IMG/VR virus record: IMGVR_UViG_3300005529_000006
Coordinates: 1-64,000 of that record
DNA length: 64,000 bases
Direction: 5' to 3' (one strand)
Source: a virus
Shown here: positions 3,178-61,714 of the stretch, piece by piece
Position numbering within the stretch: the stretch's first letter is position 1
Layout: each line of letters opens with the position of its first letter
The notes under the pieces: generated by a model
Databases searched by the model: none
Seen by the model: only the letters and a program-made list of their open reading frames with translations
Told to the model about the DNA's origin: nothing
Translations under genes and position numbers: made by a program

Positions 3178-3457
3178 TCATTGCTTGCACGATCTCCTTA
3201 TTGTCGATGACCGCAGTAGGCACGGTAGTGAAAGTCAAAGCCATAGCGATCATGGCAATTTGTGCAGATGTCAGCTTCTTATCGACCATCAGGTTGTGTA
3301 GCTCCTCTGCGATACCTGAAATATCAAAGGACAGCACGTCATCGCCCAAGATTTTCAACAAAATATCCCGGACGTTTTTAAGTTTTAATTCCGCCAAGAG
3401 ATCAAAGGTCTTGAAAACATCCCTGGTCTCCCTGTTTTCTATTCCACTCCAATCCAT
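3152..3457 (-). CDS. hypothetical protein, paralog B of a tandem pair
   Basis: About 100 aa, similar to the 2875..3177 product (LSFDISGIAEELHNLM vs TSFDISKEGQAAEKFM); GGAGGG RBS upstream. Confidence 0.5.
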   Translation of the reverse strand: MDWSGIENRETRDVFKTFDLLAELKLKNVRDILLKILGDDVLSFDISGIAEELHNLMVDKKLTSAQIAMIAMALTFTTVPTAVIDNKEIVQAMIGAKHEVA

Positions 3458-3469
3458 CTTTCCCTCCGT

Positions 3470-3488
3470 GAACCCCTTTTTAGGTAGG
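3470..3488 (+). repeat. 19-bp motif copy A (GAACCCCTTTTTAGGTAGG)
   Basis: Exact copy. On the minus strand it reads CCTACC-TAA-AAAGGGGTTC, with the TAA being the stop of 3480..3785; 13 nt upstream of the 3457 start. Confidence 0.8.
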
Positions 3489-3785
3489 ACACAGGCTTCG
3501 TCTTTGCTGCCACAAAGCGGCAGCAGAATAGAAGTGATAATCCTGCAATAAGGGGCCTATTCGCTTTCTCGGTTTTGAGCGACATCTACCTCTCTGATAC
3601 TCCCGTTTCATGTGACATGAGCGACAGACTGGCTCAACATCCAAGGGGTAGTCGTAACCAAGGTAGTGGTCGTAATCTCGCGCTCGACCGCCGCAGTCGG
3701 TGCAAGATAGCGATTTAGCTGGAGGGATCTTCCCTCGCTTTACGTAGTTCTTAATGCGCTCTCGCGCACGTAATTCCTTGGTCAT
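3480..3785 (-). CDS. zinc-finger protein (CTDCGG...CRSCH)
   Basis: ORF with Cys4 motif; ends ...CPT* inside the 19-bp motif. Confidence 0.45.
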   Translation of the reverse strand: MTKELRARERIKNYVKRGKIPPAKSLSCTDCGGRARDYDHYLGYDYPLDVEPVCRSCHMKREYQRGRCRSKPRKRIGPLLQDYHFYSAAALWQQRRSLCPT

Positions 3786-3947
3786 TCGACCTTTTCTGAA
3801 ACAGAGCGTAAGGGTATGGGGCTTGTTGGGATACGCCTACCACCGAGTCGTCAGGGGTCACGGACGTTGCTCGGATTTTCTATTCATCTCCCTCATCCTT
3901 GAATTGCGAACCCTTACACTCCATTTCAGAAAGGGCCGAAAGCCCTT

Positions 3948-4106
3948 TCACTTCTGTAACTCCCGAACGTTCTCACAGTATCCTTCATACATCAGGATGC
4001 TTTCTTCCTCTGCGAGCCGTCCGACATGAATCCCCCCACAATTTTCACATTCATACATTGTGAAGGGAGCTTTACTTAGTTTGTTGAGCTTATTCGCCAG
4101 GTTCAT
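3948..4106 (-). CDS. small zinc-ribbon protein (start taken at internal Met)
   Basis: C-terminal YECENCGGIHVGRLAEEESILMYEGYCEN; trimmed to avoid the overlap with 4130..4456. Confidence 0.3.
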   Translation of the reverse strand: MNLANKLNKLSKAPFTMYECENCGGIHVGRLAEEESILMYEGYCENVRELQK

Positions 4107-4129
4107 AGCGAACCACCAATCAGGAAGGT

Positions 4130-4456
4130 CTAACTTCTTCCTGCACTGGTTTCGCCTGAAGTCGTACTCTCTTTGCCTGAGGAGTTTGCTTCTCTGTCCC
4201 ATTGCTTTCCGATTTCTTGAATCTCTGCAATCGCGCCCCAAGGGATGGTAATGTCATCAATGGACGCACGGGAGTGCCCAATGGAAGTGGTGAGCACAAT
4301 GCCTTCTTTATTGGTCTGCACCACGTAACCGATGGACTGGATTTTCGCACAACCCCTCTGGAGCGTATCGTCGTATGTCCATCCAAACATGCTCTTGGAG
4401 TCATACCACCTGACTTGTACTGCCTTCCCAAAGGGATACTTTCTTGCCTTCGTCAT
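4130..4456 (-). CDS. hypothetical protein (108 aa)
   Basis: ORF preceded by AAGGAG-like RBS, a hairpin and a motif copy. Confidence 0.45.
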   Translation of the reverse strand: MTKARKYPFGKAVQVRWYDSKSMFGWTYDDTLQRGCAKIQSIGYVVQTNKEGIVLTTSIGHSRASIDDITIPWGAIAEIQEIGKQWDREANSSGKESTTSGETSAGRS

Positions 4457-4479
4457 CCGTCTCCTTATTAGATGAAACA

Positions 4480-4503
4480 GGGGGAGGTTTTATTTCCTCC
4501 CCC
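4480..4503 (-). terminator. GC-rich hairpin (GGGGGAGG-N8-CCTCCCCC) between two minus-strand genes
   Basis: Perfect 8-bp stem read directly; a weak U-tract follows on the minus strand. Possible attenuator or terminator. Confidence 0.35.
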
Positions 4504-4540: not shown

Positions 4541-4862
4541 AGAAGCTATATTGTTCTTCGTACTTCACCTTGAACATGAACTCGAAAGGTTTAACGGGTT
4601 GTTTTTCGTCAAACTTGACGATGAAGTCATCTGCCTTCTTCGGGGCGGAGAGAAAATATGTAACTCCGTCTAAAGTAATGGAGTAGTACCCGCCTCCAGA
4701 TATGTCCACGTTTATTTGTTCGGACGGCTTCAAATTGAGGATTCGTCCACACGCCCGAGCAATAGGACAATAAGAGCCATTGCCAACTTTTCCCTTGTCA
4801 ATATCCTCTTGCGTCACAACCACCTTGAACTTCTTTGGTACCGTTCGTTTGATTTTTGCCAT
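4539..4862 (-). CDS. hypothetical protein (107 aa)
   Basis: ORF; first gene after the 450-bp non-coding gap. Confidence 0.5.
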   Translation of the reverse strand: MAKIKRTVPKKFKVVVTQEDIDKGKVGNGSYCPIARACGRILNLKPSEQINVDISGGGYYSITLDGVTYFLSAPKKADDFIVKFDEKQPVKPFEFMFKVKYEEQYSF

Positions 4863-4976
4863 ATTTTCATCCTTTCACCAGTTCTACTGCCTTTTTGTGT
4901 CCCTCTTCCGCTTCTGTTTCTGGCGGCATCCAAGATGTAATTCATGTTGCGTTTCCCTTTATTCAAAAATTGGTGG

Positions 4977-5082
4977 GGCAGGAGTGGCTCACTCGCAGAC
5001 TGAGTACAACTAGAGTATCCGGGCTTATGGCCATGCCGGACTCGCCCTCATTCGTCCCTATGAGCTAAACCCCACTCCTGCA
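4977..5082. other. non-coding element closed by a 10-bp inverted repeat (GCAGGAGTGG ... CCACTCCTGC); contains the palindrome ATGGCCAT
   Basis: Read directly from the sequence; lies in the 4863-5318 gap with no ORF. Possible structured RNA or ori element. Confidence 0.35.
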
Positions 5083-5094
5083 CCGGGAGCGACC

Positions 5095-5350
5095 CGGCGA
5101 CCCATGTGTGGGCACAACATCACCCAAGTGGTCGATTCTGTCTCTCTCACTACCCCCCTGAACACCTAATTCCAACTTCGAGTGGGCACATCTTTACCCA
5201 GGTGGTAGAATCTGTCACTCTCTCTTTCCCCCTTAACCCCTTTAGAATCCTATAAATAAATAAACACCCAAAAAGAGAGAGACATATCTAACCACTTGGG
5301 CGTAGTTGTGCCTAAATTTCAGGACTTACCACTTGGGCAACTTGTGCCCG
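5095..5350. repeat. repeat cluster: two ~60-bp direct repeats starting GTGGGCACA(A), then two inverted partial copies (ACCACTTGGGC..TTGTGCC)
   Basis: Repeats at about 5108-5165, 5182-5240, 5291-5312 and 5328-5350. The same GGGCACAA core recurs at 56759-56950. Confidence 0.6.
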
Positions 5351-5561
5351 AATCTTGGTAATACTGACAATGATTGTTCCCTTCCGCGTCCAGTCCACCT
5401 CTTTCATTGAACCCGAAGTGTTCACATTCCTCCGGGATGAACTGTTCTCCAGTAGCTTGCAACCACACTTCGTTCATGACCACACCTAGGTGATGCTCCG
5501 TCCAAGAGTGGCCGCAAACACATATGCCCGAACATTCCGGCCCACTGTATCTAGGATTCAC
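5319..5561 (-). CDS. Cys/His-rich small protein, candidate anti-sigma or zinc-binding partner of the sigma factor
   Basis: Its start overlaps the sigma gene end by 11 nt; motif CSGICVCGHSWTEHH. Confidence 0.45.
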   Translation of the reverse strand: MNPRYSGPECSGICVCGHSWTEHHLGVVMNEVWLQATGEQFIPEECEHFGFNERGGLDAEGNNHCQYYQDSGTSCPSGKS

Positions 5562-6078
5562 GTCCCCTCCTCATCTTTTCCGCAATATCAAACCACTTCT
5601 TACACGCCCCACCCACAGTGATCCCCAACCTCTCTCCGATCTCCTCATGCGTGAGCCCTTCCAATCTCATCCTCACCACCAACTTCTCCTCATCATCCAA
5701 GACCTCCATTGCCTGCTCCAACTCCGCCTTTGCAAGCATGGCTCGGCCTTGTCTTTCCTCATCTCCTAATGTCTCCTCCAACGTGTCCACGGATATCTCA
5801 GGGTGCGTGATCTTCTCCCTCAAAGAGAGATTGCACATTTGCGTCACAATCGCCTGGAACCACGTACTAAACAGGCTCTCTCCCCTGAACGTATGGGCCT
5901 TATCAATTGCCTTCCACACGGCATCGGCCACAATATCCGGCCTATACTCCCCCAACTTCAACCAACAAACCGCGAACGCATGTCTGCGGAGGAGAGGAAT
6001 CAGCAAGTCCAACGCCGCTCGTTTCTCCTCCTCAGTCTGCGCACTCTGCCATAACGCGAACGCCTCATTCTCCTTCAT
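5551..6078 (-). CDS. ECF-type sigma-70 family RNA polymerase sigma factor
   Basis: Region 2 (DAVWKAIDKAHTFRGESLFSTWFQAIVTQMCNLSLRE) and region 4 HTH (LEGLTHEEIGERLGITVGGACKKWFDIAEKMR); 175 aa. Confidence 0.75.
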   Translation of the reverse strand: MKENEAFALWQSAQTEEEKRAALDLLIPLLRRHAFAVCWLKLGEYRPDIVADAVWKAIDKAHTFRGESLFSTWFQAIVTQMCNLSLREKITHPEISVDTLEETLGDEERQGRAMLAKAELEQAMEVLDDEEKLVVRMRLEGLTHEEIGERLGITVGGACKKWFDIAEKMRRGRES

Positions 6079-10473: not shown

Positions 10474-11352
10474 TTATTGTTTTGAATTTACAGGCAAATT
10501 GAATAACAATCCGCCACCGGCACCTGTCATCACACTTGGCACATCTCCATGCCAGCGATCAACAGCTTTGTCCTGGATAGCGAGTCGCCGCCACTCTAAC
10601 AACTGAGGTGTAAGGCTCTCAGTCAGCTTTTTGTTGGCTTGCGCTTCACCATCAGCTTGAGCGATATGCGCTTTGGCCTCACCTTCAGCCTGCGCCACTC
10701 GCTTCTGCGCTTCCGCTTGAGCAGTCAGCACTTCATTCTGAACTTTCAGTGCAATTTGCTGCGCTTGCATCTTCGCATTGATAGCTTCAATGATCTGCTG
10801 CGGTGGACGAGGAGAACCGATCAAACCAAAACTCTGAATCTGCACTCCCAAATCCTTCGTGCCATCTTGCACACAACCCCGCACATCATCCAACAGCGGC
10901 TGCACATTGCTCATCAACTGATCCACAGTGTATTTCCCACCGTGGCTGGTGAAGCAATCCCGCGTGACATTGTGCAGATACCCAAAGGTAAACTGCGTAA
11001 TATCGTCGGTGCGGAACTTCACATAAAACGCTGGCACCTTGGTGGAATCGAGCTGATACGAAAGGTTCACGTCAACATTCACCGTCATGCCCCCGTTCGT
11101 ATTGAACGTGAAGGACTCATCGCCCTCCGAGTTCTTCGCCGTCCACACGTACGTTTGCACATACGTGGGATATTCCATGATGCTCGTTGTGAACGGGTTG
11201 TAGAACACCCAACCCGTCGTGGTGGTGTAATCCTGTACCCCACGATGCGTTCCGGCCATGTCTACCACAATTCCCACATGGCTCGGGTTAATCCGCGTGC
11301 ACCCCACTCCTGCCATTAACAGGAGCACTACCCCCAACAGACTCTTTCTCAT
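10474..11352 (-). CDS. SPFH/band-7 (stomatin/HflC-like) lipoprotein
   Basis: Signal peptide MRKSLLGVVLLLMAGVGC (lipobox-like); band-7 core; C-terminal coiled coil AQAEAQKRVAQAEGEAKAHIAQADGEAQA. Confidence 0.65.
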   Translation of the reverse strand: MRKSLLGVVLLLMAGVGCTRINPSHVGIVVDMAGTHRGVQDYTTTTGWVFYNPFTTSIMEYPTYVQTYVWTAKNSEGDESFTFNTNGGMTVNVDVNLSYQLDSTKVPAFYVKFRTDDITQFTFGYLHNVTRDCFTSHGGKYTVDQLMSNVQPLLDDVRGCVQDGTKDLGVQIQSFGLIGSPRPPQQIIEAINAKMQAQQIALKVQNEVLTAQAEAQKRVAQAEGEAKAHIAQADGEAQANKKLTESLTPQLLEWRRLAIQDKAVDRWHGDVPSVMTGAGGGLLFNLPVNSKQ

Positions 11353-11536
11353 GCTTCTTCTCCTTTTTCCAGACCCGACGCAAGATAGTGGGGACAACAA
11401 TACCCCACGAAACTAAAAACAACCCCGCTCCCAAGAACAACTGAGTGTCACTGGGAGCGTCCATCATAGAGAGAGCGATGGTTGTCACTCTCATCATGAG
11501 CAAGAACAACAAAGCCGTAAGTATCGCTTTCTTCAT
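11288..11536 (-). CDS. small membrane protein (NfeD-like partner candidate)
   Basis: Two TM helices; immediately upstream of the SPFH gene, with overlap. Confidence 0.4.
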   Translation of the reverse strand: MKKAILTALLFLLMMRVTTIALSMMDAPSDTQLFLGAGLFLVSWGIVVPTILRRVWKKEKKHEKESVGGSAPVNGRSGVHAD

Positions 11537-18966: not shown

Positions 18967-18993
18967 ATACCCAACTTTCGATTCCGCGGCAAG

Positions 18994-19053
18994 TTGAAGA
19001 AAACAAAGGACTTAGAAAAAACCGCTCTAACTTGTTGAAAACAAAGGACTTAG
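18994..19053 (+). repeat. two direct copies of TTGnnGAAAACAAAGGACTTAG, 39 bp apart
   Basis: aagTTGaaGAAAACAAAGGACTTAG and aacTTGttGAAAACAAAGGACTTAG, read directly. Confidence 0.7.
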
Positions 19054-19495: not shown

Positions 19496-19584
19496 AGGTA
19501 TGACATGTGTTTTCAATGAGATACAAGAATTTTCCTTGTAAGTCGTTGATTCTAAAGCGCAATGTCCAAATGACACTTTTCTGA

Positions 19585-19604
19585 TAAGTCCTTTGTTTTC
19601 AAGG
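19585..19604 (-). repeat. inverted third copy of the GAAAACAAAGGACTTA element
   Basis: Plus strand reads TAAGTCCTTTGTTTTCAAGG, which is the reverse complement of the 18994 and 19033 copies. Confidence 0.65.
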
Positions 19605-19724
19605 GTCCTCATGTTTCTCACTACCCCGCCGATCACCAGCCCCAGGACCCAAAATCCTTTAGAATATTCACCCCTTTAGTGAGAAACATTTACTATATTG
19701 ATAAATAAGGGTTTATGCATTTTG

Positions 19725-19855: not shown

Positions 19856-19927
19856 CGAAGCACCTGTATAAAATATTTTTATGTTGTTGGAAATAAAAAT
19901 ACTTCCGGGGGGATCTAATTCAATGAA

Positions 19928-53200: not shown

Positions 53201-55310
53201 CCAGCAGATGGGCATTGTTGATCCCACCAACGCGGGAATCCAAAACTATCTCAAGCACCTTTGGGAGCGCCCCAACCGCGCCATCGACAGGAACCTCCTG
53301 TTCGGTAAGCGCCCGATTGCAGGCCCAGGAACCTTTCTCAAAGAACGCTTCTACGACTACATGTCAGACGGTCTCGACGCAGGACTAAAGCCTGTCACCT
53401 ACAACCCCATCAAGATGCAGCTCATGGGGATGTTCGAGATCGACCGCTTCATCCGTGCACATGAGATGAAGGACGACCTTATGGCCTCCCGCACCTCGAC
53501 AGGTGCCAGGTTGATGAAGTGGTATAAGCTCGGGGAGTCAAAGCCTCCGGGCTGGCAGAAGATTGATGACCGCCTATTTCAACCGAAGTTCATGACCAAG
53601 AGCGGCCTCACCGAGGCTGGAGCATACTGGGCGCATCCTGACGTAGCCAAGGTCTTCAATAACTACCTCTCCACCGGATTGCAAAACGAAGCCTGGTATC
53701 GAGGGGCCCGACACTTTGGCAACTTCCTCAACCGGATGCAGCTCTCGACTTCTGCCTTCCACGCCACCTTCGAAGTCCTGAACTCAACGATCTCTGAAGT
53801 GGCTCTGGGTTTCCAGAAAGCATTTAACAACCGCGACTTCGGTGCCGCAGCCAAACATATCTTCCGTTCTCCTGTGGCTGCCGCTCATTACTGGAAGCTC
53901 GGCAAGATGATCGAAGCTGAATACCTGACACCTTCGAACAATCTCCAATTGGCTTCTCTCGCTAAGTCCCTGGAGATCGCAGGCGGCAGGATTGGCCTCG
54001 ACCCGCTCTACACTAACAACGCAGTCGAAGCTTTCCATCGTGCAGTGACCGACCGTTCTCTAAAAGCCCTGCCCCGTGCAGTAGATGCATTGGTGGAGAA
54101 ATCTTCTAACTGGCTCATGAAGAACATGGTCCCCCGAATCAAGATTGGGATGTTTGCGGAGATGGCCGACCATCGCCTCAACGAACTCATGAACGCCGGA
54201 GCCTCCCGCGAAACCATCTCGACTGAACTTGGAAAGCTCTGGGACTCTGTGGACAACCGCGCCGGACAGCTTGTCTATGACAACCTCTTCTGGAGCAAAA
54301 CGCGCAAAGACCTGGGCTTCTTAGTTATGCGTTCTCAAGGTTGGAACCTTGGTACGTTACGAGAACTCGGGGGAGGAATGGTCGATCTCGGCAAGATGTT
54401 CGGAGGGAACACCCGCTTGACCGAACGCACAGCCTACATCATGGCGATGACTGCAACCATGGGATCTCTGGGTGCGATCTACCACTACATGGAAACAGGT
54501 CAAGCACCCCGGAAGCCCGCAGACTATTTCTTCCCTGGCAAAGAGGGCCAGAAGAAATCCTTCCCCTCTTATATCCGTGACGTAGGTGCGCTGCTGCACG
54601 CCTTGAGTAGCCCCAACAAGCTTCAGGGTGTAGGCACGATTGCTGCCCACAAACTCAACCCAGAGTGGCAGCTCCTCTACGACCTCTACACTAACCACGA
54701 CTTCTACGACACACAGATCTATGACCCCGGAGATCCGGCTACCCGTCAAGTCTGGGATGTCGCAAAGTACATCGGGAAGCAGGCAACTCCTATCTCTATC
54801 CAATCTGCCATGGAACGGCACCGTACAGGTGAATCGTGGGGTAGCTCGGTGGGTGGCTCCCTCATGGGTATCACTCCCGCGCCCAAGTACATCGGTCAAT
54901 CCCCTGCGGAAGAGATGGCCTTCGAACTTGCCAAGCGCAAGATGGAATCCGGCCCACACTCCAAAGACGAGTTCGCCCGTGAGCAGGCTTTCCAGGAAGT
55001 ACGCCGCACTCTCGCACAGCACGGCAAGCTCGACTTCAACCGTGTTCGCCAGCTTGTAGCCGATGGCAAGGTCACCGCAGAACAGGTAGACCGTATCTAC
55101 GATGAGCAAGGCATGGGTGCCTTGGAGCGCCACGTCGCCAGATTAGACAACCTCAAAGACATGTTCACTATCTGGGATCTGGCCGACCCCAACGAAAAAG
55201 TCCAACTCCGCTCTCGTATTCTGGATGTTTACGATAACGATATCGGTCGCCTGTCTCAGGACCAGCGTGAGTACTACACTCGCAGAATTCGCAGTGAAGT
55301 GCTACACTAG
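50292..55310 (+). CDS. giant internal virion / ejection-type protein (1672 aa)
   Basis: Last and largest structural gene, Ala/Gln/Lys-rich; carries an in-frame motif copy (PLPKKGF). Confidence 0.6.
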   Translation: MPQNPDIRSVLDPLQVDKSLKKTAWDSYYGANSPDEFRQKFDSLAIPKEAKKQLWDMKFGGKPKVNFPIPQPFETGPQLPEKPEQPGIVSQVLSAASNIPLLSDLGIPSSRGPMPVKGAGVADVTGARGYPEMYQGAKEFYNADQYADKRRAQYQGAARTIGGAMEAAKPLMYLSAAEAPIDFAAGLALSQAGSYGAEHISRNYFKASPEAQQLWGQLGGFLPMAGGMARGSIRGYKELRSNLVSKLADDMLKQGATPEMAQQAAEHAVQMYEATGDAQRIGAENAEPPSATKVAKIQGRKIAGGVVGAAQHAAPLPEEQKATPIPEFQQAPVPTDKIATPTETFAQPETPKTTPAREILSSSPSSESAFMEPPKVEAAQPTDVRSETRHNITTDAVTGEQKVARKELPPAQERAQQYVNDYQNFDKEQQQLERSLKNGRLKNADATRQRVELLKQLKDKAWRNYVQYADRGDVVDTLKGLAPQLKSLADQSSLLQSIGKHLADGSYTLYKATADKSNKTYVPDDLIQSALGTGRTNVVPPVPKDFVDSLPEGSYKEQLKALNPRSQEIRQAWVSKYLLQTSGEVRNQYEALNDRFNVALKVKGVRPEEWLPLTAESKPEPKGLPAYRPETPAPAVNKPSASATERNSIIEYYQKQLAAAKTDKDRQMWQKSIEKEQKKLGKVPPTEVPKTEPPLPKKGFSEQELPDEMRSFLSANATMGMRADGDIGALRQLAQFGDPKVSKRARLYLKALGHEVPKVSKASKVESAPSTSEGTPAEKSLEAAQSAQAAGKPLSPLSRKEVLDVVDKEIAKAGFDKAIVKDIRKLVLDTYAREVAAGNENALEDVKGVIQSFANQKGVFSFRRIPGTPQGPSVFSRLADTLDRTLNKSEQRQLAENVLREGTGSLARDREKVFHRLEDHLDRHDGDNVMEFREFMDAGEGKPGARFLNPQDQAIANDLHQMFQERWAKLQQMGIVDPTNAGIQNYLKHLWERPNRAIDRNLLFGKRPIAGPGTFLKERFYDYMSDGLDAGLKPVTYNPIKMQLMGMFEIDRFIRAHEMKDDLMASRTSTGARLMKWYKLGESKPPGWQKIDDRLFQPKFMTKSGLTEAGAYWAHPDVAKVFNNYLSTGLQNEAWYRGARHFGNFLNRMQLSTSAFHATFEVLNSTISEVALGFQKAFNNRDFGAAAKHIFRSPVAAAHYWKLGKMIEAEYLTPSNNLQLASLAKSLEIAGGRIGLDPLYTNNAVEAFHRAVTDRSLKALPRAVDALVEKSSNWLMKNMVPRIKIGMFAEMADHRLNELMNAGASRETISTELGKLWDSVDNRAGQLVYDNLFWSKTRKDLGFLVMRSQGWNLGTLRELGGGMVDLGKMFGGNTRLTERTAYIMAMTATMGSLGAIYHYMETGQAPRKPADYFFPGKEGQKKSFPSYIRDVGALLHALSSPNKLQGVGTIAAHKLNPEWQLLYDLYTNHDFYDTQIYDPGDPATRQVWDVAKYIGKQATPISIQSAMERHRTGESWGSSVGGSLMGITPAPKYIGQSPAEEMAFELAKRKMESGPHSKDEFAREQAFQEVRRTLAQHGKLDFNRVRQLVADGKVTAEQVDRIYDEQGMGALERHVARLDNLKDMFTIWDLADPNEKVQLRSRILDVYDNDIGRLSQDQREYYTRRIRSEVLH
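52373..52391 (-). repeat. 19-bp motif copy G inside the 1672-aa gene (CCTACCTAAAAAGGGGTTC, in frame as PLPKKGF)
   Basis: Exact copy. Confidence 0.8.
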
Positions 55311-55358
55311 AAATAAGATCTGGTGTTTTCAGATCTAATAAGACGAATAACGCAAAGA

Positions 55359-55389: not shown

Positions 55390-56259
55390 ATGAATCTTCG
55401 ATTTTGGGCAGGCAAATATGAAGCCTCCCTCGCCACGACAGTACGCAGAGACACCCGCGAACGCTACGGCATAGCCCTCAACCACATCCTGGAATACCTT
55501 GGCCCCCTCCATCCCAAGGATGTCTTCAAGATCGACGCCAAGAACTACATGGCCCACCGGCTCTCTAAGGGCCTAGCTCCCAACACGGTTCGCCAGGAGA
55601 TCTTGGTAGGCTGTGCTTTCTACAACTGGCTCATCGAAAACGAAGTCGTAGAGTACGGCCACAATCCGTTCTCCCGTGTCAAGAAGCCTCGCGCCCCTGA
55701 ACCACTACGTCGGGCACTCTCTAAAGACACTCTCGCCAAACTGTGGGCTGCTGCGGAGAAGAAAAGTGATCTGGTGATGTTGTCTGTGGCATTGCTTACT
55801 CCCCTTAACGCCAAGACAATTGCCATGCTGCAAAAGAGCAACTTCGATTTCGAGCGCAAGCAACTGGTGTGCGAGAGGAGCAAGACAGGTGTGGCCCTGA
55901 TTCTTCCTGTGGCCGATGAACTCCTGGAGCTGGTAGCTTCTCTCCCCGAGGGTCCCCTCTTCCCCAAGGTAATCCTTGACCGCAGGCCCGGCTCTGTGCT
56001 CTCCCGCCGCTTTGCGGTCCTAGCAAAAAAAGCCCTGGGGTTTAACCCAGGGCTACATGCGCTGCGCCATACCTTTGCAACCGACGCACTTCAAAGCGGA
56101 GTTGACATCCGGACCGTTCAAGCACTACTCGGCCATAAGTCAATAATGACGACCGCTCGTTATCTTGCGCCAGCGGACACTGAATCGGTCAGAGGGTTCT
56201 TGGAGACTAGGTTGCTGAAGCTTCAATCACCTTTGTCTCCGCCTCCTGAATCCCCGTAG
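55390..56259 (+). CDS. tyrosine recombinase, Xer-like (289 aa)
   Basis: C-terminal catalytic HALRHTFATDAL...LLGHKSIMTTARYLA (R-H-R-Y). Confidence 0.75.
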   Translation: MNLRFWAGKYEASLATTVRRDTRERYGIALNHILEYLGPLHPKDVFKIDAKNYMAHRLSKGLAPNTVRQEILVGCAFYNWLIENEVVEYGHNPFSRVKKPRAPEPLRRALSKDTLAKLWAAAEKKSDLVMLSVALLTPLNAKTIAMLQKSNFDFERKQLVCERSKTGVALILPVADELLELVASLPEGPLFPKVILDRRPGSVLSRRFAVLAKKALGFNPGLHALRHTFATDALQSGVDIRTVQALLGHKSIMTTARYLAPADTESVRGFLETRLLKLQSPLSPPPESP

Positions 56260-56734: not shown

Positions 56735-56755
56735 AGCCCCGAAAGGGGCTTTTTA
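56735..56755 (+). terminator. rho-independent terminator (AGCCCC-gaaa-GGGGCT + TTTTT)
   Basis: Read directly. Confidence 0.6.
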
Positions 56756-56758
56756 TTT

Positions 56759-56798
56759 GGGCACAACTGGGCACAAAACCTGGACTATTTTGTGCCCT
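56759..56798. promoter_or_regulatory. operator-like site: GGGCACAA direct pair, then a 10-10-10 palindrome GGGCACAAAA-N10-TTTTGTGCCC
   Basis: Read directly; same core as the 5095-5350 cluster. Confidence 0.55.
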
Positions 56799-56889
56799 TT
56801 TTCTTTGTGGCAGAACGCTAACCCACATGGAATCAACAGGGCTTATGTTATATATTTGGGTACCGCGCCCTGCCACAGGGACATTCAAA

Positions 56890-58086
56890 CTATACACCTG
56901 CAACAACTTCTGCCTCAACCGTGGGCACAAGTGGGCACAAAATCGTGCCCATCTGATCCGCTACTTCCCGGTCTTTCTCCCGAATAGCGTGCGCATAAAC
57001 CCGAAGCGTGAGGCTTGGATCGGCGTGGCCGAGCCTGGTTGCCGCCGTTCGGATATCGACTCCTCGGGAAACAAGGAGAGTTGCGTTGGCGTGCCGGAAG
57101 GCATGAAGGCCCCCTGGCTCAATCCCGAGTCGTTCGAGGAGGGGTTGGAGCTTTTGGAATACGATGTCATGGCCATCAAGAGGGGTGCCGTTGCGGGTGC
57201 TAAACACGAATCGCAAAGGGTCTCCCCCTCCAGCACAATGACGTTCAAGGGCATCAGCCAGAGCTTTGGATACCGCGAGCGTTCGTAGTGCGCTCGTCGA
57301 TTTCGGGGTCTGTACTCGACCCTTCCATACACTCTGCCGCACTTGCACTGTATGGTGTCGGGTGTCAACATCACACACCCTGAGTCCAGTGATTTCACCT
57401 GCACGTAGTCCTGTTTCAGCAGCCAGCCAATAGATAGTCCTATATGGTTCTTCGGCTGCGGCGATTATTCTTTGGATCTCCTCCAGGGAGAAGCACCGTC
57501 TCTTGGGTGGCTTCTTCCTTGGGAGCACAATGCCATCACAGGCGTTGTGAGTTACAGTTCCCCAAGATTTGGCGGTCTTCCATATGAGTCTGAAGGTGCC
57601 GATGATATTCCTGACGGTCTTGGGATTTAAGGTGAGGCCCGCGATGAATCTTTGAAGATGCACGGGTGCAATATCCCCCATGTCCATCTCCCCAAAATAC
57701 GGAATAAGATACCTGTTTATGTGGTTCTTCTCCATGCTCTGAGTGGACAACTTGTGGGAGGGCATCACGGTGTCTCGCCAGTTGGTGGCAAATTCCCCAA
57801 AAGACACCTTGACCCTCGGACGATAATCCAGGGCATTTACTTCACCCAGGAGTCGGTCGAGGGCCCGTTGAGCTAAACGTTTAGTAGGGAGTTCCTGTAG
57901 AGTCCCCAATACCTTCGACTTGTGAACTCTCACAATCGCAGAAGTTGAGGCGCTTGCCACAGCTCCAGCAGAAGTCGTAGGTTCCCCATACGAAGGCTTG
58001 ACATCCTCCCTCCACCTGGCGACCCACACCTTCTTCTTGTTTCCCCTGAGAAACAACCTTCCTTTCTGATACCTTCTCCGAGCCAT
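56890..58086 (-). CDS. int: tyrosine integrase (phage type, about 398 aa from the MARRRYQKG start)
   Basis: N-terminal arm/SAM-like region, catalytic C-terminus ...LHAFRHANATLL...GHADPSLTLRVYAH. ORF as listed begins at 58143. Confidence 0.75.
   Translation of the reverse strand: MARRRYQKGRLFLRGNKKKVWVARWREDVKPSYGEPTTSAGAVASASTSAIVRVHKSKVLGTLQELPTKRLAQRALDRLLGEVNALDYRPRVKVSFGEFATNWRDTVMPSHKLSTQSMEKNHINRYLIPYFGEMDMGDIAPVHLQRFIAGLTLNPKTVRNIIGTFRLIWKTAKSWGTVTHNACDGIVLPRKKPPKRRCFSLEEIQRIIAAAEEPYRTIYWLAAETGLRAGEITGLRVCDVDTRHHTVQVRQSVWKGRVQTPKSTSALRTLAVSKALADALERHCAGGGDPLRFVFSTRNGTPLDGHDIVFQKLQPLLERLGIEPGGLHAFRHANATLLVSRGVDIRTAATRLGHADPSLTLRVYAHAIREKDREVADQMGTILCPLVPTVEAEVVAGV
56921..56950. repeat. 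GTGGGCACAA x2 plus an inverted GTGCCC half-site, overlapping the last codons of the integrase
   Basis: Read directly; candidate arm-type/attP-associated sites. Confidence 0.5.
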
Positions 58087-61674: not shown

Positions 61675-61714
61675 CGAGATATTAGATGGATCACGCTGCG
61701 ACTTTATTTCCCAT

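Follow-up and report, generated by a model that had tools for sequence, protein, structure and literature searches.

The 64,000-nt stretch analysed here (IMG/VR record IMGVR_UViG_3300005529_000006, hereafter the window) makes up nearly the whole of a phage contig of 67,277 bp from a metagenome (ENA ERZ27279688 k141_3087895). It includes a real 490-bp gap (hereafter the island) whose repeat cluster, at positions 5108-5350, is the subject of this analysis. The phage is a temperate soil phage, probably of Acidobacteria; relatives of its integrase are annotated in Acidobacteriota metagenome-assembled genomes (MAGs), related contigs derive from soil and peat metagenomes, and no deposited phage matched the window by DNA homology. 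Gene order on the minus strand starts with a control region near 19-20 kb and continues through an early block that ends in the gene of an extracytoplasmic function (ECF)-like sigma factor, which the island separates from the replication/recombination module. Past the island, the same strand carries a 107-amino-acid (aa) orphan gene, a 108-aa gene, an HNH-like open reading frame (ORF), an exonuclease/EndoVII fusion, an AAA_24 protein and a UDG-PolA protein that spans the window ends, followed by a DUF3987 primase-helicase, an NT5C-like protein, an RNase-H-fold protein and finally a tyrosine integrase (Int). Late genes occupy the plus strand from 19.9 to 56.3 kb. A preliminary description of this DNA had called the island the only long gap in the operon; the assembler's gene calls leave a second one at 3457-4130, but this is probably filled by an uncalled HNH-like ORF (3480-3785).

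The cluster consists of four copies of a composite of ~40 bp, in which an octamer, GGGCACAA (box1), is followed after 4 or 5 nt by CCCAAGTGGT (box2) and after another 6 nt by TGTCTCTCTC (the CT arm). All three boxes are present in units A, B and C, and unit D, which extends into the final codons of the 80-aa ORF (end of the early block), has no CT tract (Table 1). Units A and B face units C and D, two per direction, across an AT-rich centre (GC 0.275 over 5240-5279, against about 0.50 around it). The features first reported here are all present in the sequence, with corrections to the position of a hairpin, the length of the units and the gap count. The two direct repeats described as ~60 bp are 60 nt each and 80% identical, and the two inverted partial copies carry CCCAAGTGGT on the minus strand at 5291-5300 and 5328-5337 and box1 (GGGCACAA/AGGCACAA) at 5306-5313 and 5342-5349; the repeated composite itself is longer than had been described. 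Spacing between boxes is irregular in the island (37 and 74 bp, with inverted pairs), and the spacers differ from unit to unit (CATCA, CTTTA, CTACG, GTTG) whereas the boxes are exact in all copies. These sequences are also rare in the genome. Exact GGGCACAA occurs eight times in 64 kb, against about two expected from length alone, and seven of the eight copies fall into two clusters, at 5110-5349 and 56759-56940. The 10-mer GTGGGCACA(A/T) is confined within the window to units A and B and positions 56921/56931, and the full composite of box2 and CT arm is found, at ≤2 mismatches, at 5123, 5197 and 5300 only, the next best sites having 6 mismatches. An IMG/VR search with the exact bipartite box returned four matches, all unrelated to the window.

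Table 1 Coordinates of the features discussed, in the window unless other genomes are named.
Feature	Position	Strand	Description
Inverted-repeat element	4975-5084		arms 4975-4987 and 5072-5084, 13 nt, 12/13 complementary, 84 nt between
Small hairpin CCGGG-AGCGA-CCCGG	5083-5097		between inverted-repeat element and unit A
Unit A	5108-5167	+	box1 GGGCACAA 5110-5117, box2 CCCAAGTGGT 5123-5132, CGATTC, CT arm TGTCTCTCTC 5139-5148, C-rich tail; reads from 5108 GTGGGCACAA CATCA CCCAAGTGGT CGATTC TGTCTCTCTC ACTACCCCCC
Unit B	5182-5241	+	box1 variant GGGCACAT 5184-5191, box2 CCCAGGTGGT 5197-5206, CT arm TGTCACTCTCTC 5213-5224, C-rich tail; reads from 5182 GTGGGCACAT CTTTA CCCAGGTGGT AGAATC TGTCACTCTC TCTTTCCCCC
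-10-like hexamer of unit B	5206-5211	+	TAGAAT with TG
AT-rich centre	5242-5274		between facing units
Unit C (gene direction)	5275-5315	-	box1 AGGCACAA 5313-5306, box2 5300-5291, TAGATA, CT arm 5284-5275; reads from 5315 TTAGGCACAA CTACG CCCAAGTGGT TAGATA TGTCTCTCTC TTTTTGGG
Unit D (gene direction)	5320-5352	-	box1 5349-5342, 4-nt spacer, box2 5337-5328, no CT arm; reads from 5352 TCGGGCACAA GTTG CCCAAGTGGT AAGTCC, no CT tract
80-aa Cys/His-rich ORF	5319-5561	-	end of early block, next to sigma gene
ECF-like sigma gene	5551-6078	-	Sigma70_r4, r4_2, ECF and r2 matches; closes early block
Degenerate second palindrome copy	19598-19686		CAAGGGTCCTCATGTTTCTCACTACCCC ... TAGTGAGAAA; early/late control region
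ECF-type promoter candidate nearest island	4467-4496	-	GAAATAAA-N15-CATCTAAT, before 108-aa gene
ECF-type promoter candidate	19890-19919	+	late operon
ECF-type promoter candidate	55310-55339	+	Xer-like recombinase gene
ECF-type promoter candidate	61681-61710	-	gene near 61.7 kb
Box cluster 1	56759-56797		GGGCACAA at 56759 and 56769 (+, 10 bp apart), 56797-56790 (-)
Box cluster 2	56921-56950		overlaps int 3' end; GTGGGCACAA twice (+), TCGTGCCC (-); boxes 56923/56933/56950(-)
Tyrosine integrase gene (int), 417 aa	56890-58143	-	last in minus-strand order
Copies of 19-nt motif GAACCCCTTTTTAGGTAGG	3470, 4540, 19477, 19855, 29582, 43258, 52391, 55370, 61715	(-) for 4540, 19855, 29582, 52391
Tandem-box loci in Acidobacteriota/Actinomycetota genomes	L190 5140-5368; L186 6737-6833; L174 6866-7037; L151 2210-2227; L141 5982-5999; L175 160-384		by int 3' end and/or tRNA

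Relatives of the phage were found through its sigma factor, AAA_24 protein and PolA, and every one of them encodes a member of the 108-aa family. The closest, R1 (L017/L029/L040), is one phage recovered twice, L017 and L029 being 100% identical over 7.4 kb, and R2 (L031/L037) is another relative of ~66 kb. An inverted repeat of TGTCTCTCTC and GAGAGAGACA lies upstream of the 108-aa gene in seven of ten phages (the window, L006, L007, L008, L014, L017 and L025), with a core layout of AT-rich flank, (T)GTCTCTCTC, 20-50 nt, GAGAGAGAC(A) and a second AT-rich flank; an eighth, L022, has a partial copy that retains just the CT arm, with G-runs after it. This core is kept at the syntenic site although the phage proteins are just 35-55% identical. 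The outer arms are wholly different between phages, consisting of CCACACTATAATAATA in L006, AAAATACTTGTA in L007 and the two boxes in the window. Conservation in relatives, which the preliminary description had made a test of function, extends to the CT/GA core but not to the boxes, which are missing from the islands of L006, L007, L008, L014 and L025. Both L022 and the island of R1 retain only the gene-direction unit, and the context of unit C, AAATTTAGGCACAAC, is a match to the R1 unit.

An exact-core scan of IMG/VR revealed a second genomic copy of the core in the early/late control region of R1 (L040, colinear with the window at 19.9-21.5 kb) and of R2. The window holds a degenerate copy in its own control region, the plus-strand arm of which resembles unit A from box2 through the C-rich tail, with another local repeat, AAGTCCTTTGTTTTC, in the place of box1. 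Since the early-region arm of R1, ACTCAGCGGTACGATTCTGTCTCTC, is close to unit A of the window (CCCAAGTGGTCGATTCTGTCTCTC), box2 and the CT arm form a conserved unit of about 25 bp. Both ends of the early operon have the palindrome associated with them. A degenerate pattern of the unit searched in IMG/VR yielded chance matches and R1 only. In the early-region palindrome, the 30-odd-nt loop between CT and GA arms is oppositely oriented in R1 (L040 5811-5866) and R2 (L031 419-472), and the segment must therefore have flipped in the course of evolution. This evolutionary flip is the only inversion seen, and an invertible switch operated by the second recombinase was rejected, the loops in the relatives being too short for recombinase-mediated inversion. 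Ends of a miniature inverted-repeat transposable element or other transposon were likewise rejected: the flanks extend the palindrome without target duplications, and the enclosed loops span just 20-50 nt. TGTCTCT is similar to the Tn5 mosaic end.

The octamer connects the island to the attachment (att) region. As first noted, the island core also occurs at the integrase 3' end, and the window uses (T/G)GGGCACAA at both places. Each of the two int-end clusters consists of two direct copies 10 bp apart and one inverted copy; the clusters lie about 125 bp apart, and a canonical intrinsic terminator (56735-56757) abuts the first. A tRNA-like attP core between them was sought and rejected, as no tRNA was detected there and no T-arm was seen on reading. 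R1, whose integrase is 53-54% identical to that of the window, has its own box variant, TTAGGCACAA, as a tandem pair 11 bp apart (TTGTGCCTAAG twice) beyond the int terminator, and the same variant, in the form TTTAGGCACAAG, is found in its island 25 nt upstream of the CT arm. The box variant therefore covaries between island and att, R1 using TTAGGCACAA and the window GGGCACAA, each at both sites. This covariation, together with the sharing of the box, supports the earlier proposal of one DNA-binding protein common to the island and the int 3' end. The same comparison yielded nothing for L044 and L046, in which no int lies within reach.

Evidence from other genomes and from structure prediction points to the nature of this protein. 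A scan of 185,579 species genomes for the tandem box pair gave a hit total roughly equal to the chance estimate (about 280). Among the 120 matches listed, the pair follows a tyrosine integrase gene at a distance of 0-45 nt in L190, L186, L174, L151 and L141, and adjoins a tRNA or tRNA 3' end in L190, L174, L175 and L162. In L190, an Acidobacteria MAG, the order is int, TTTGTGCCCA twice, about 70 bp, TTTGTGCCCA twice, about 40 bp and tRNA-Glu, and the integrase has an N-terminal QKG...W..RWRE motif in common with that of the window. No primase-helicase homologue was found near the tandem-box sites of other genomes. Integrases at these loci are just about 25% identical to the window integrase, and the tandem box therefore looks like a widely shared arm-site consensus. 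In the AlphaFold model of the window integrase, the N-terminal domain has three strands (29-33, 39-50 and 71-81) and a helix (88-102) with a confidence score (pLDDT) of about 90, and the Foldseek alignment of the model with full-length lambda Int extends across about 385-390 columns, compared with about 295 when the target is lambda Int(75-356). A PDB sequence search with the Int N-domain and the 108-aa protein gave no match. Of the three roles first suggested for the shared protein (repressor at an operator, integrase at an arm site, or origin-binding protein), the integrase arm site is the one with independent support, from the tandem boxes next to int and tRNA genes elsewhere and from the predicted Int fold. 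The best identification of GGGCACAA, resting on sequence comparison and the model, is an arm-type box of a lambda-like heterobivalent integrase, although a cognate recombination directionality factor (RDF) may recognise it. Because the island boxes are about 14 kb from int along the circular map, they are arm-type in sequence but do not belong to attP. Among the ORFs near int and the island that were compared with Pfam and PHROG, which included part of the small ORFs, none gave a Xis, Cox or helix-turn-helix match.

A candidate promoter motif for the ECF-like sigma factor of the phage, GGAAATAAA-N15/16-(C/G)ATCTAAT, has four copies against none expected, all sense and all upstream of genes. 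The relatives have their own versions (GACAAGA-N15-GCGTCTAATCTT three times in R1, two copies in L007), and every relative has a (G)TCTAA(T/A) element ahead of its 108-aa gene. The island repeats were rejected as phage-sigma promoters, since this motif differs from them and none of its four copies lies in the island, and a sigma-54 promoter (TGGCAC-N5-TTGC) was rejected on a spacing misfit judged by eye. Unit B is the only unit that passes a sigma-70 consensus scan (TGGGCA-17-TGgTAGAAT). By eye, a -10-like hexamer ends 1-5 nt before GTCTC in nearly every arm of the family; consensus scans of the early control regions gave chance-level matches. No intrinsic terminator was found for the cluster in the gene direction, there being no U-tract after the stems.

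The reading we favour, albeit tentatively, is that the cluster is an Int- or RDF-occupied promoter-operator module at the entrance to the replication genes. On this view the DNA itself, bound by protein, would exert control where the early operon gives way to the replication/recombination module; such a control region, or an origin, is more likely here than a structured RNA. Its base element would be an AT-rich, -10-like flank, TGTCTCTCTC, 20-50 nt and GAGAGAGACA, expanded in the window to four units, each of which would have acquired a GGGCACAA box at a -35-like position. The units would then be face-to-face promoter-like sites, and occupancy of the four boxes by Int or an RDF would gate transcription into the replication genes as well as antisense transcription back into the sigma gene, so coupling the decision between integration and excision to expression of the replication module. 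A transcription-control module is favoured because of the position of the cluster, the family-wide occurrence of the palindrome at two operon boundaries, the retained gene-direction unit and the -10-like hexamers that adjoin the CT arm. The repeats, their conservation and the box common to the att region underlie this reading, as does the arm-binding fold predicted for Int; promoter activity, the identity of the binder and the direction of its effect are what we infer, and with them the function of the cluster.

Several observations weigh against this reading. We know of no documented precedent for arm-type sites about 14 kb from att, and the one-turn (10-bp) direct-repeat spacing of RDF operators is seen at the att clusters but not at the island, with its inverted pairs of boxes at intervals of 37 and 74 bp. 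The island has no excess of sigma-70-like matches (2, against 1.1 ± 0.9 in shuffles), the predicted start sites land on pyrimidines, and units A and B point away from any same-strand gene. The palindrome is lacking at the syntenic place in two of the ten phages (L013 and L044). Finally, in the early control region the window has box2 on one side of the palindrome and R1 has it on the other, as would be expected of a binding site more than of a promoter element with a fixed position. A broader proposal, which we consider unlikely, is that Int or its RDF has taken on direct regulation at a distance from att, through four arm-type boxes in a face-to-face, promoter- or origin-like palindromic module before the replication genes, its occupancy physically coupling the integrate-or-replicate decision to replication-module transcription or origin firing. 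Under it, the CT/GA palindrome bracketing the early operon would be a previously undescribed control element of soil (Acidobacteriota-type) phages with a host-RNA-polymerase-then-phage-ECF-sigma programme.

A replication origin, with four iteron-like initiator sites around an AT-rich unwinding element and perhaps primed by transcription, is the main alternative, though an unlikely one, and would make the GGGCACAA clusters near int a second cis-acting site comparable with that of P4 ori/crr. The element has few copies genome-wide and sits directly upstream of replication/recombination genes, its two plus two units surround a centre of 27% GC, the arms in relatives are AT-rich, and the phage encodes a PolA-type polymerase and a DUF3987 helicase-primase; sense-strand G-runs and GA tracts also lie downstream of the CT arm, with G exceeding C on the sense strand of the loop in seven of eight islands. 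However, only the CT/GA core is kept in relatives and not the iteron-like boxes, which are irregularly spaced in inverted pairs rather than in a direct array. No initiator was recognised among the genes, and in other genomes the box goes with integrases and not with primase-helicases. The additional palindrome in the early/late control region would be more natural for transcription control. The skew analysis proposed in the preliminary description also spoke against an origin: plus-strand GC skew is negative throughout the window regardless of gene strand, without a sign change at the island, and magnitude alone shifts near 4-5 kb. Skew in the early block (about 4-18 kb, -0.19 to -0.24) is twice that of the replication and late blocks, and the step coincides with the island.

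It is also unlikely that the cluster is instead a structured RNA in the sense transcript, which could be processed by RNase III, stabilise a 5' or 3' end, terminate or insulate transcription, or work in antitermination like nut or put where early genes give way to middle ones. Over 5100-5360 the sense strand does fold into a nested hairpin (D with A', C with B') of -96.4 kcal/mol (z = -4.9), 20 kcal/mol more stable than the antisense strand, and arms that differ between phages remain complementary within each phage. Any inverted DNA repeat automatically yields such a score, though, and we attribute the high z-score to this. The sense strand is also the more stable in six of eight relatives, an advantage due to G-runs in the loops; the loops are G-richer on the sense strand in seven of eight islands, and in L008 and L022 the loops carry GGGGGAGGGGG runs and the CU tract pairs with G-runs through G·U. 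This polarity leaves some room for an RNA or R-loop component, and we take the CT tract followed by TTA to be similar to boxA. Mismatches in the palindrome arms, however, show no wobble bias: G·U pairs on the sense strand are not above A·C (9 against 11, the latter being G·U on the antisense strand), and most mismatches are transversions (34). Exact boxes with freely changing spacers, which show no covariation, form a pattern of protein recognition and not of base-pair maintenance. The stems lack a U-tract, yet canonical terminators occur elsewhere in the same genomes. Searches for tRNA and tmRNA (ARAGORN) and for Rfam families (4700-5500, at the gathering threshold and at E ≤ 10) gave no usable match to the cluster, the sub-threshold, miRNA-like Rfam matches being caused by the hairpin. 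That the cluster is a set of non-functional, decaying duplications, expanded from the palindrome by template switching, with an octamer that resembles an arm box by accident, is highly improbable: the units do differ at about 20% of positions and the flipped early-region loop of R1 and R2 indicates that such palindromes rearrange, but boxes stay exact while spacers drift, two phages show covariation of the box variant between island and att, and the core persists at its syntenic site across divergent phages.

Upstream of unit A, the island contains the inverted-repeat-closed element at 4975-5084. The preliminary description had placed both a palindrome and a hairpin within it; ATGGCCAT does lie inside, at 5027-5034, but the CCGGG-AGCGA-CCCGG hairpin is outside and abuts the right arm. 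Taken alone, the 13-nt inverted repeat is only mildly unusual: 1.3% of dinucleotide shuffles contain one, as do 5 of 261 window segments of equal size. The suggestion that the element is a structured RNA or an origin was not borne out, as it folds no better than shuffles (z -1.25 and -1.36, both strands), and neither a tRNA (ARAGORN) nor an Rfam family matched it. R1 lacks the element, its palindrome being followed directly by the ECF-type promoter and the 108-aa gene, and in the window this junction is interrupted by the element, by the 107-aa orphan gene and by a single copy of a 19-nt motif that is dispersed over the genome. Because they are absent from R1, the element and the orphan gene look like a window-specific insertion. 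The 107-aa protein has one 82-aa match, on a 513-bp contig, and this orphan status ruled out a test of the element through homologues of the gene. With AAUUUUUG just 4-5 nt downstream of its 13-bp stem, which closes the 84-nt interior, the element could be a weak terminator, or perhaps the leader of the orphan gene. L007 has two or three tiny ORFs (10882-11420; about 45 aa, hydrophobic peptides) between palindrome and ECF-type promoter, where the window has the orphan gene.

Other repeats and genes accompany these control regions. The 19-nt motif, GAACCCCTTTTTAGGTAGG, is present in nine near-exact copies in both orientations, and the relatives examined are without it. Several copies directly adjoin ECF-type promoters or stop 1-2 nt short of a start codon, four run antisense to the genes around them, and the 1672-aa ORF contains one. 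A separate operator-like repeat, GAAAACAAAGGACTTAG, present in the early/late control region as a direct pair and a single inverted copy (18984-19053 and 19578-19600), is probably the operator of an immunity repressor; the R1 counterpart comprises AAGTCCTT-N6-AAGGACTT and a ATAAGTCCTTTATAAT that overlaps a perfect -10 (L040 5440-5470 and 5741-5760). The segment 19140-19330 has an AT-rich stretch (AAAAATATAAAAATATGCTATTAAATTGTTGATTC) between two copies of GGGGGGTGG(C/G)...GGGNCCCCAA, an arrangement that R1 shares (L040 about 5630-5740) and that is a candidate for another origin or regulatory site. The second, Xer-like tyrosine recombinase (289 aa, 55390-56259, plus strand) is encoded at the late-strand end, convergent with int, and would be driven by an ECF-type promoter; the arrangement is kept in R1 (L029 11740-12606). 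The early block of relatives has several COOH-NH2 ligase and glutamine amidotransferase genes (L006 1-850, 4938-8183 and 10788-11606; L007 3752-6239 and 9041-9844), which may serve DNA base hypermodification, and at this position the window instead encodes a Band_7 protein and an AAA_5 ATPase of MoxR-like type. Whatever the mechanism at the island, these analyses provide a regulatory map for an uncultured group of ~65-kb soil phages, with candidate phage-sigma promoters, a conserved palindrome at two operon boundaries and an arm-box consensus common to integrases of Acidobacteriota and Actinomycetota.

The lambda nut and HK022 put sites act as antitermination RNAs. Like them, the palindrome has two copies per genome near the starts of transcription units and combines a pyrimidine-rich, boxA-like tract with a hairpin, but the island shows no G·U signature of RNA selection, its arms and loops are long and variable, and we know of no N-like protein for this phage. 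Origins built from a promoter and an unwinding element include the T7 primary origin (phi1.1A/B), just after the RNA polymerase gene, and T4 ori(uvsY) and ori(34); in the T7 origin and ori(uvsY), a promoter is followed by an AT-rich element and a purine-rich RNA. The island similarly has tandem promoter-like units and an AT-rich stretch after a transcription-specificity gene and before replication genes, whereas the phage-sigma promoters of the window are a different motif located elsewhere. Iteron origins, such as lambda ori, the P4 ori/crr octamers and SaPI ori, share with the island repeated units (here predicted to bind protein) around an AT-rich stretch and an octamer reused at a distant second locus; they differ in that the island lacks regular direct spacing, an adjacent recognised initiator gene and conservation of the box, which tracks integrases.

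The arm-type sites of lambda-like integrases (P and P' of attP) resemble the shared box in being a short tandem sequence with a one-turn period next to int and, in other genomes, a tRNA target, and the window Int is predicted to have the N-terminal domain of three strands and a helix. Unlike these sites, four more copies in the window lie about 14 kb from att, within composite repeats, in two inverted pairs and at 37/74-bp spacing. 186 Apl and P2 Cox (PMC7498355) are single proteins that bind both att and the promoter region governing the developmental choice, and the sites of Apl, at att as well as at the promoters, are direct repeats with a period of one helical turn (PMC7498355); RdfS is grouped with them as a dual-purpose directionality factor (PMC11963761). 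The regulated promoters of 186 face each other, as the units of the island would. The island differs in that its boxes lack one-turn direct repeats, its flanking genes are all co-directional and the scans described above recognised no RDF gene. Apl and Cox offer the closest analogy to the proposed promoter-operator module occupied by Int or an RDF, but an incomplete one, given the island spacing, the lack of a gene for units A and B to drive and the chance-level promoter matches. Should Int or an RDF bind the island, it would represent a sequence-level case of arm-type boxes reused outside attP for the control of replication genes, and would extend the idea embodied by Apl and Cox from directionality factors to the arm-site system.

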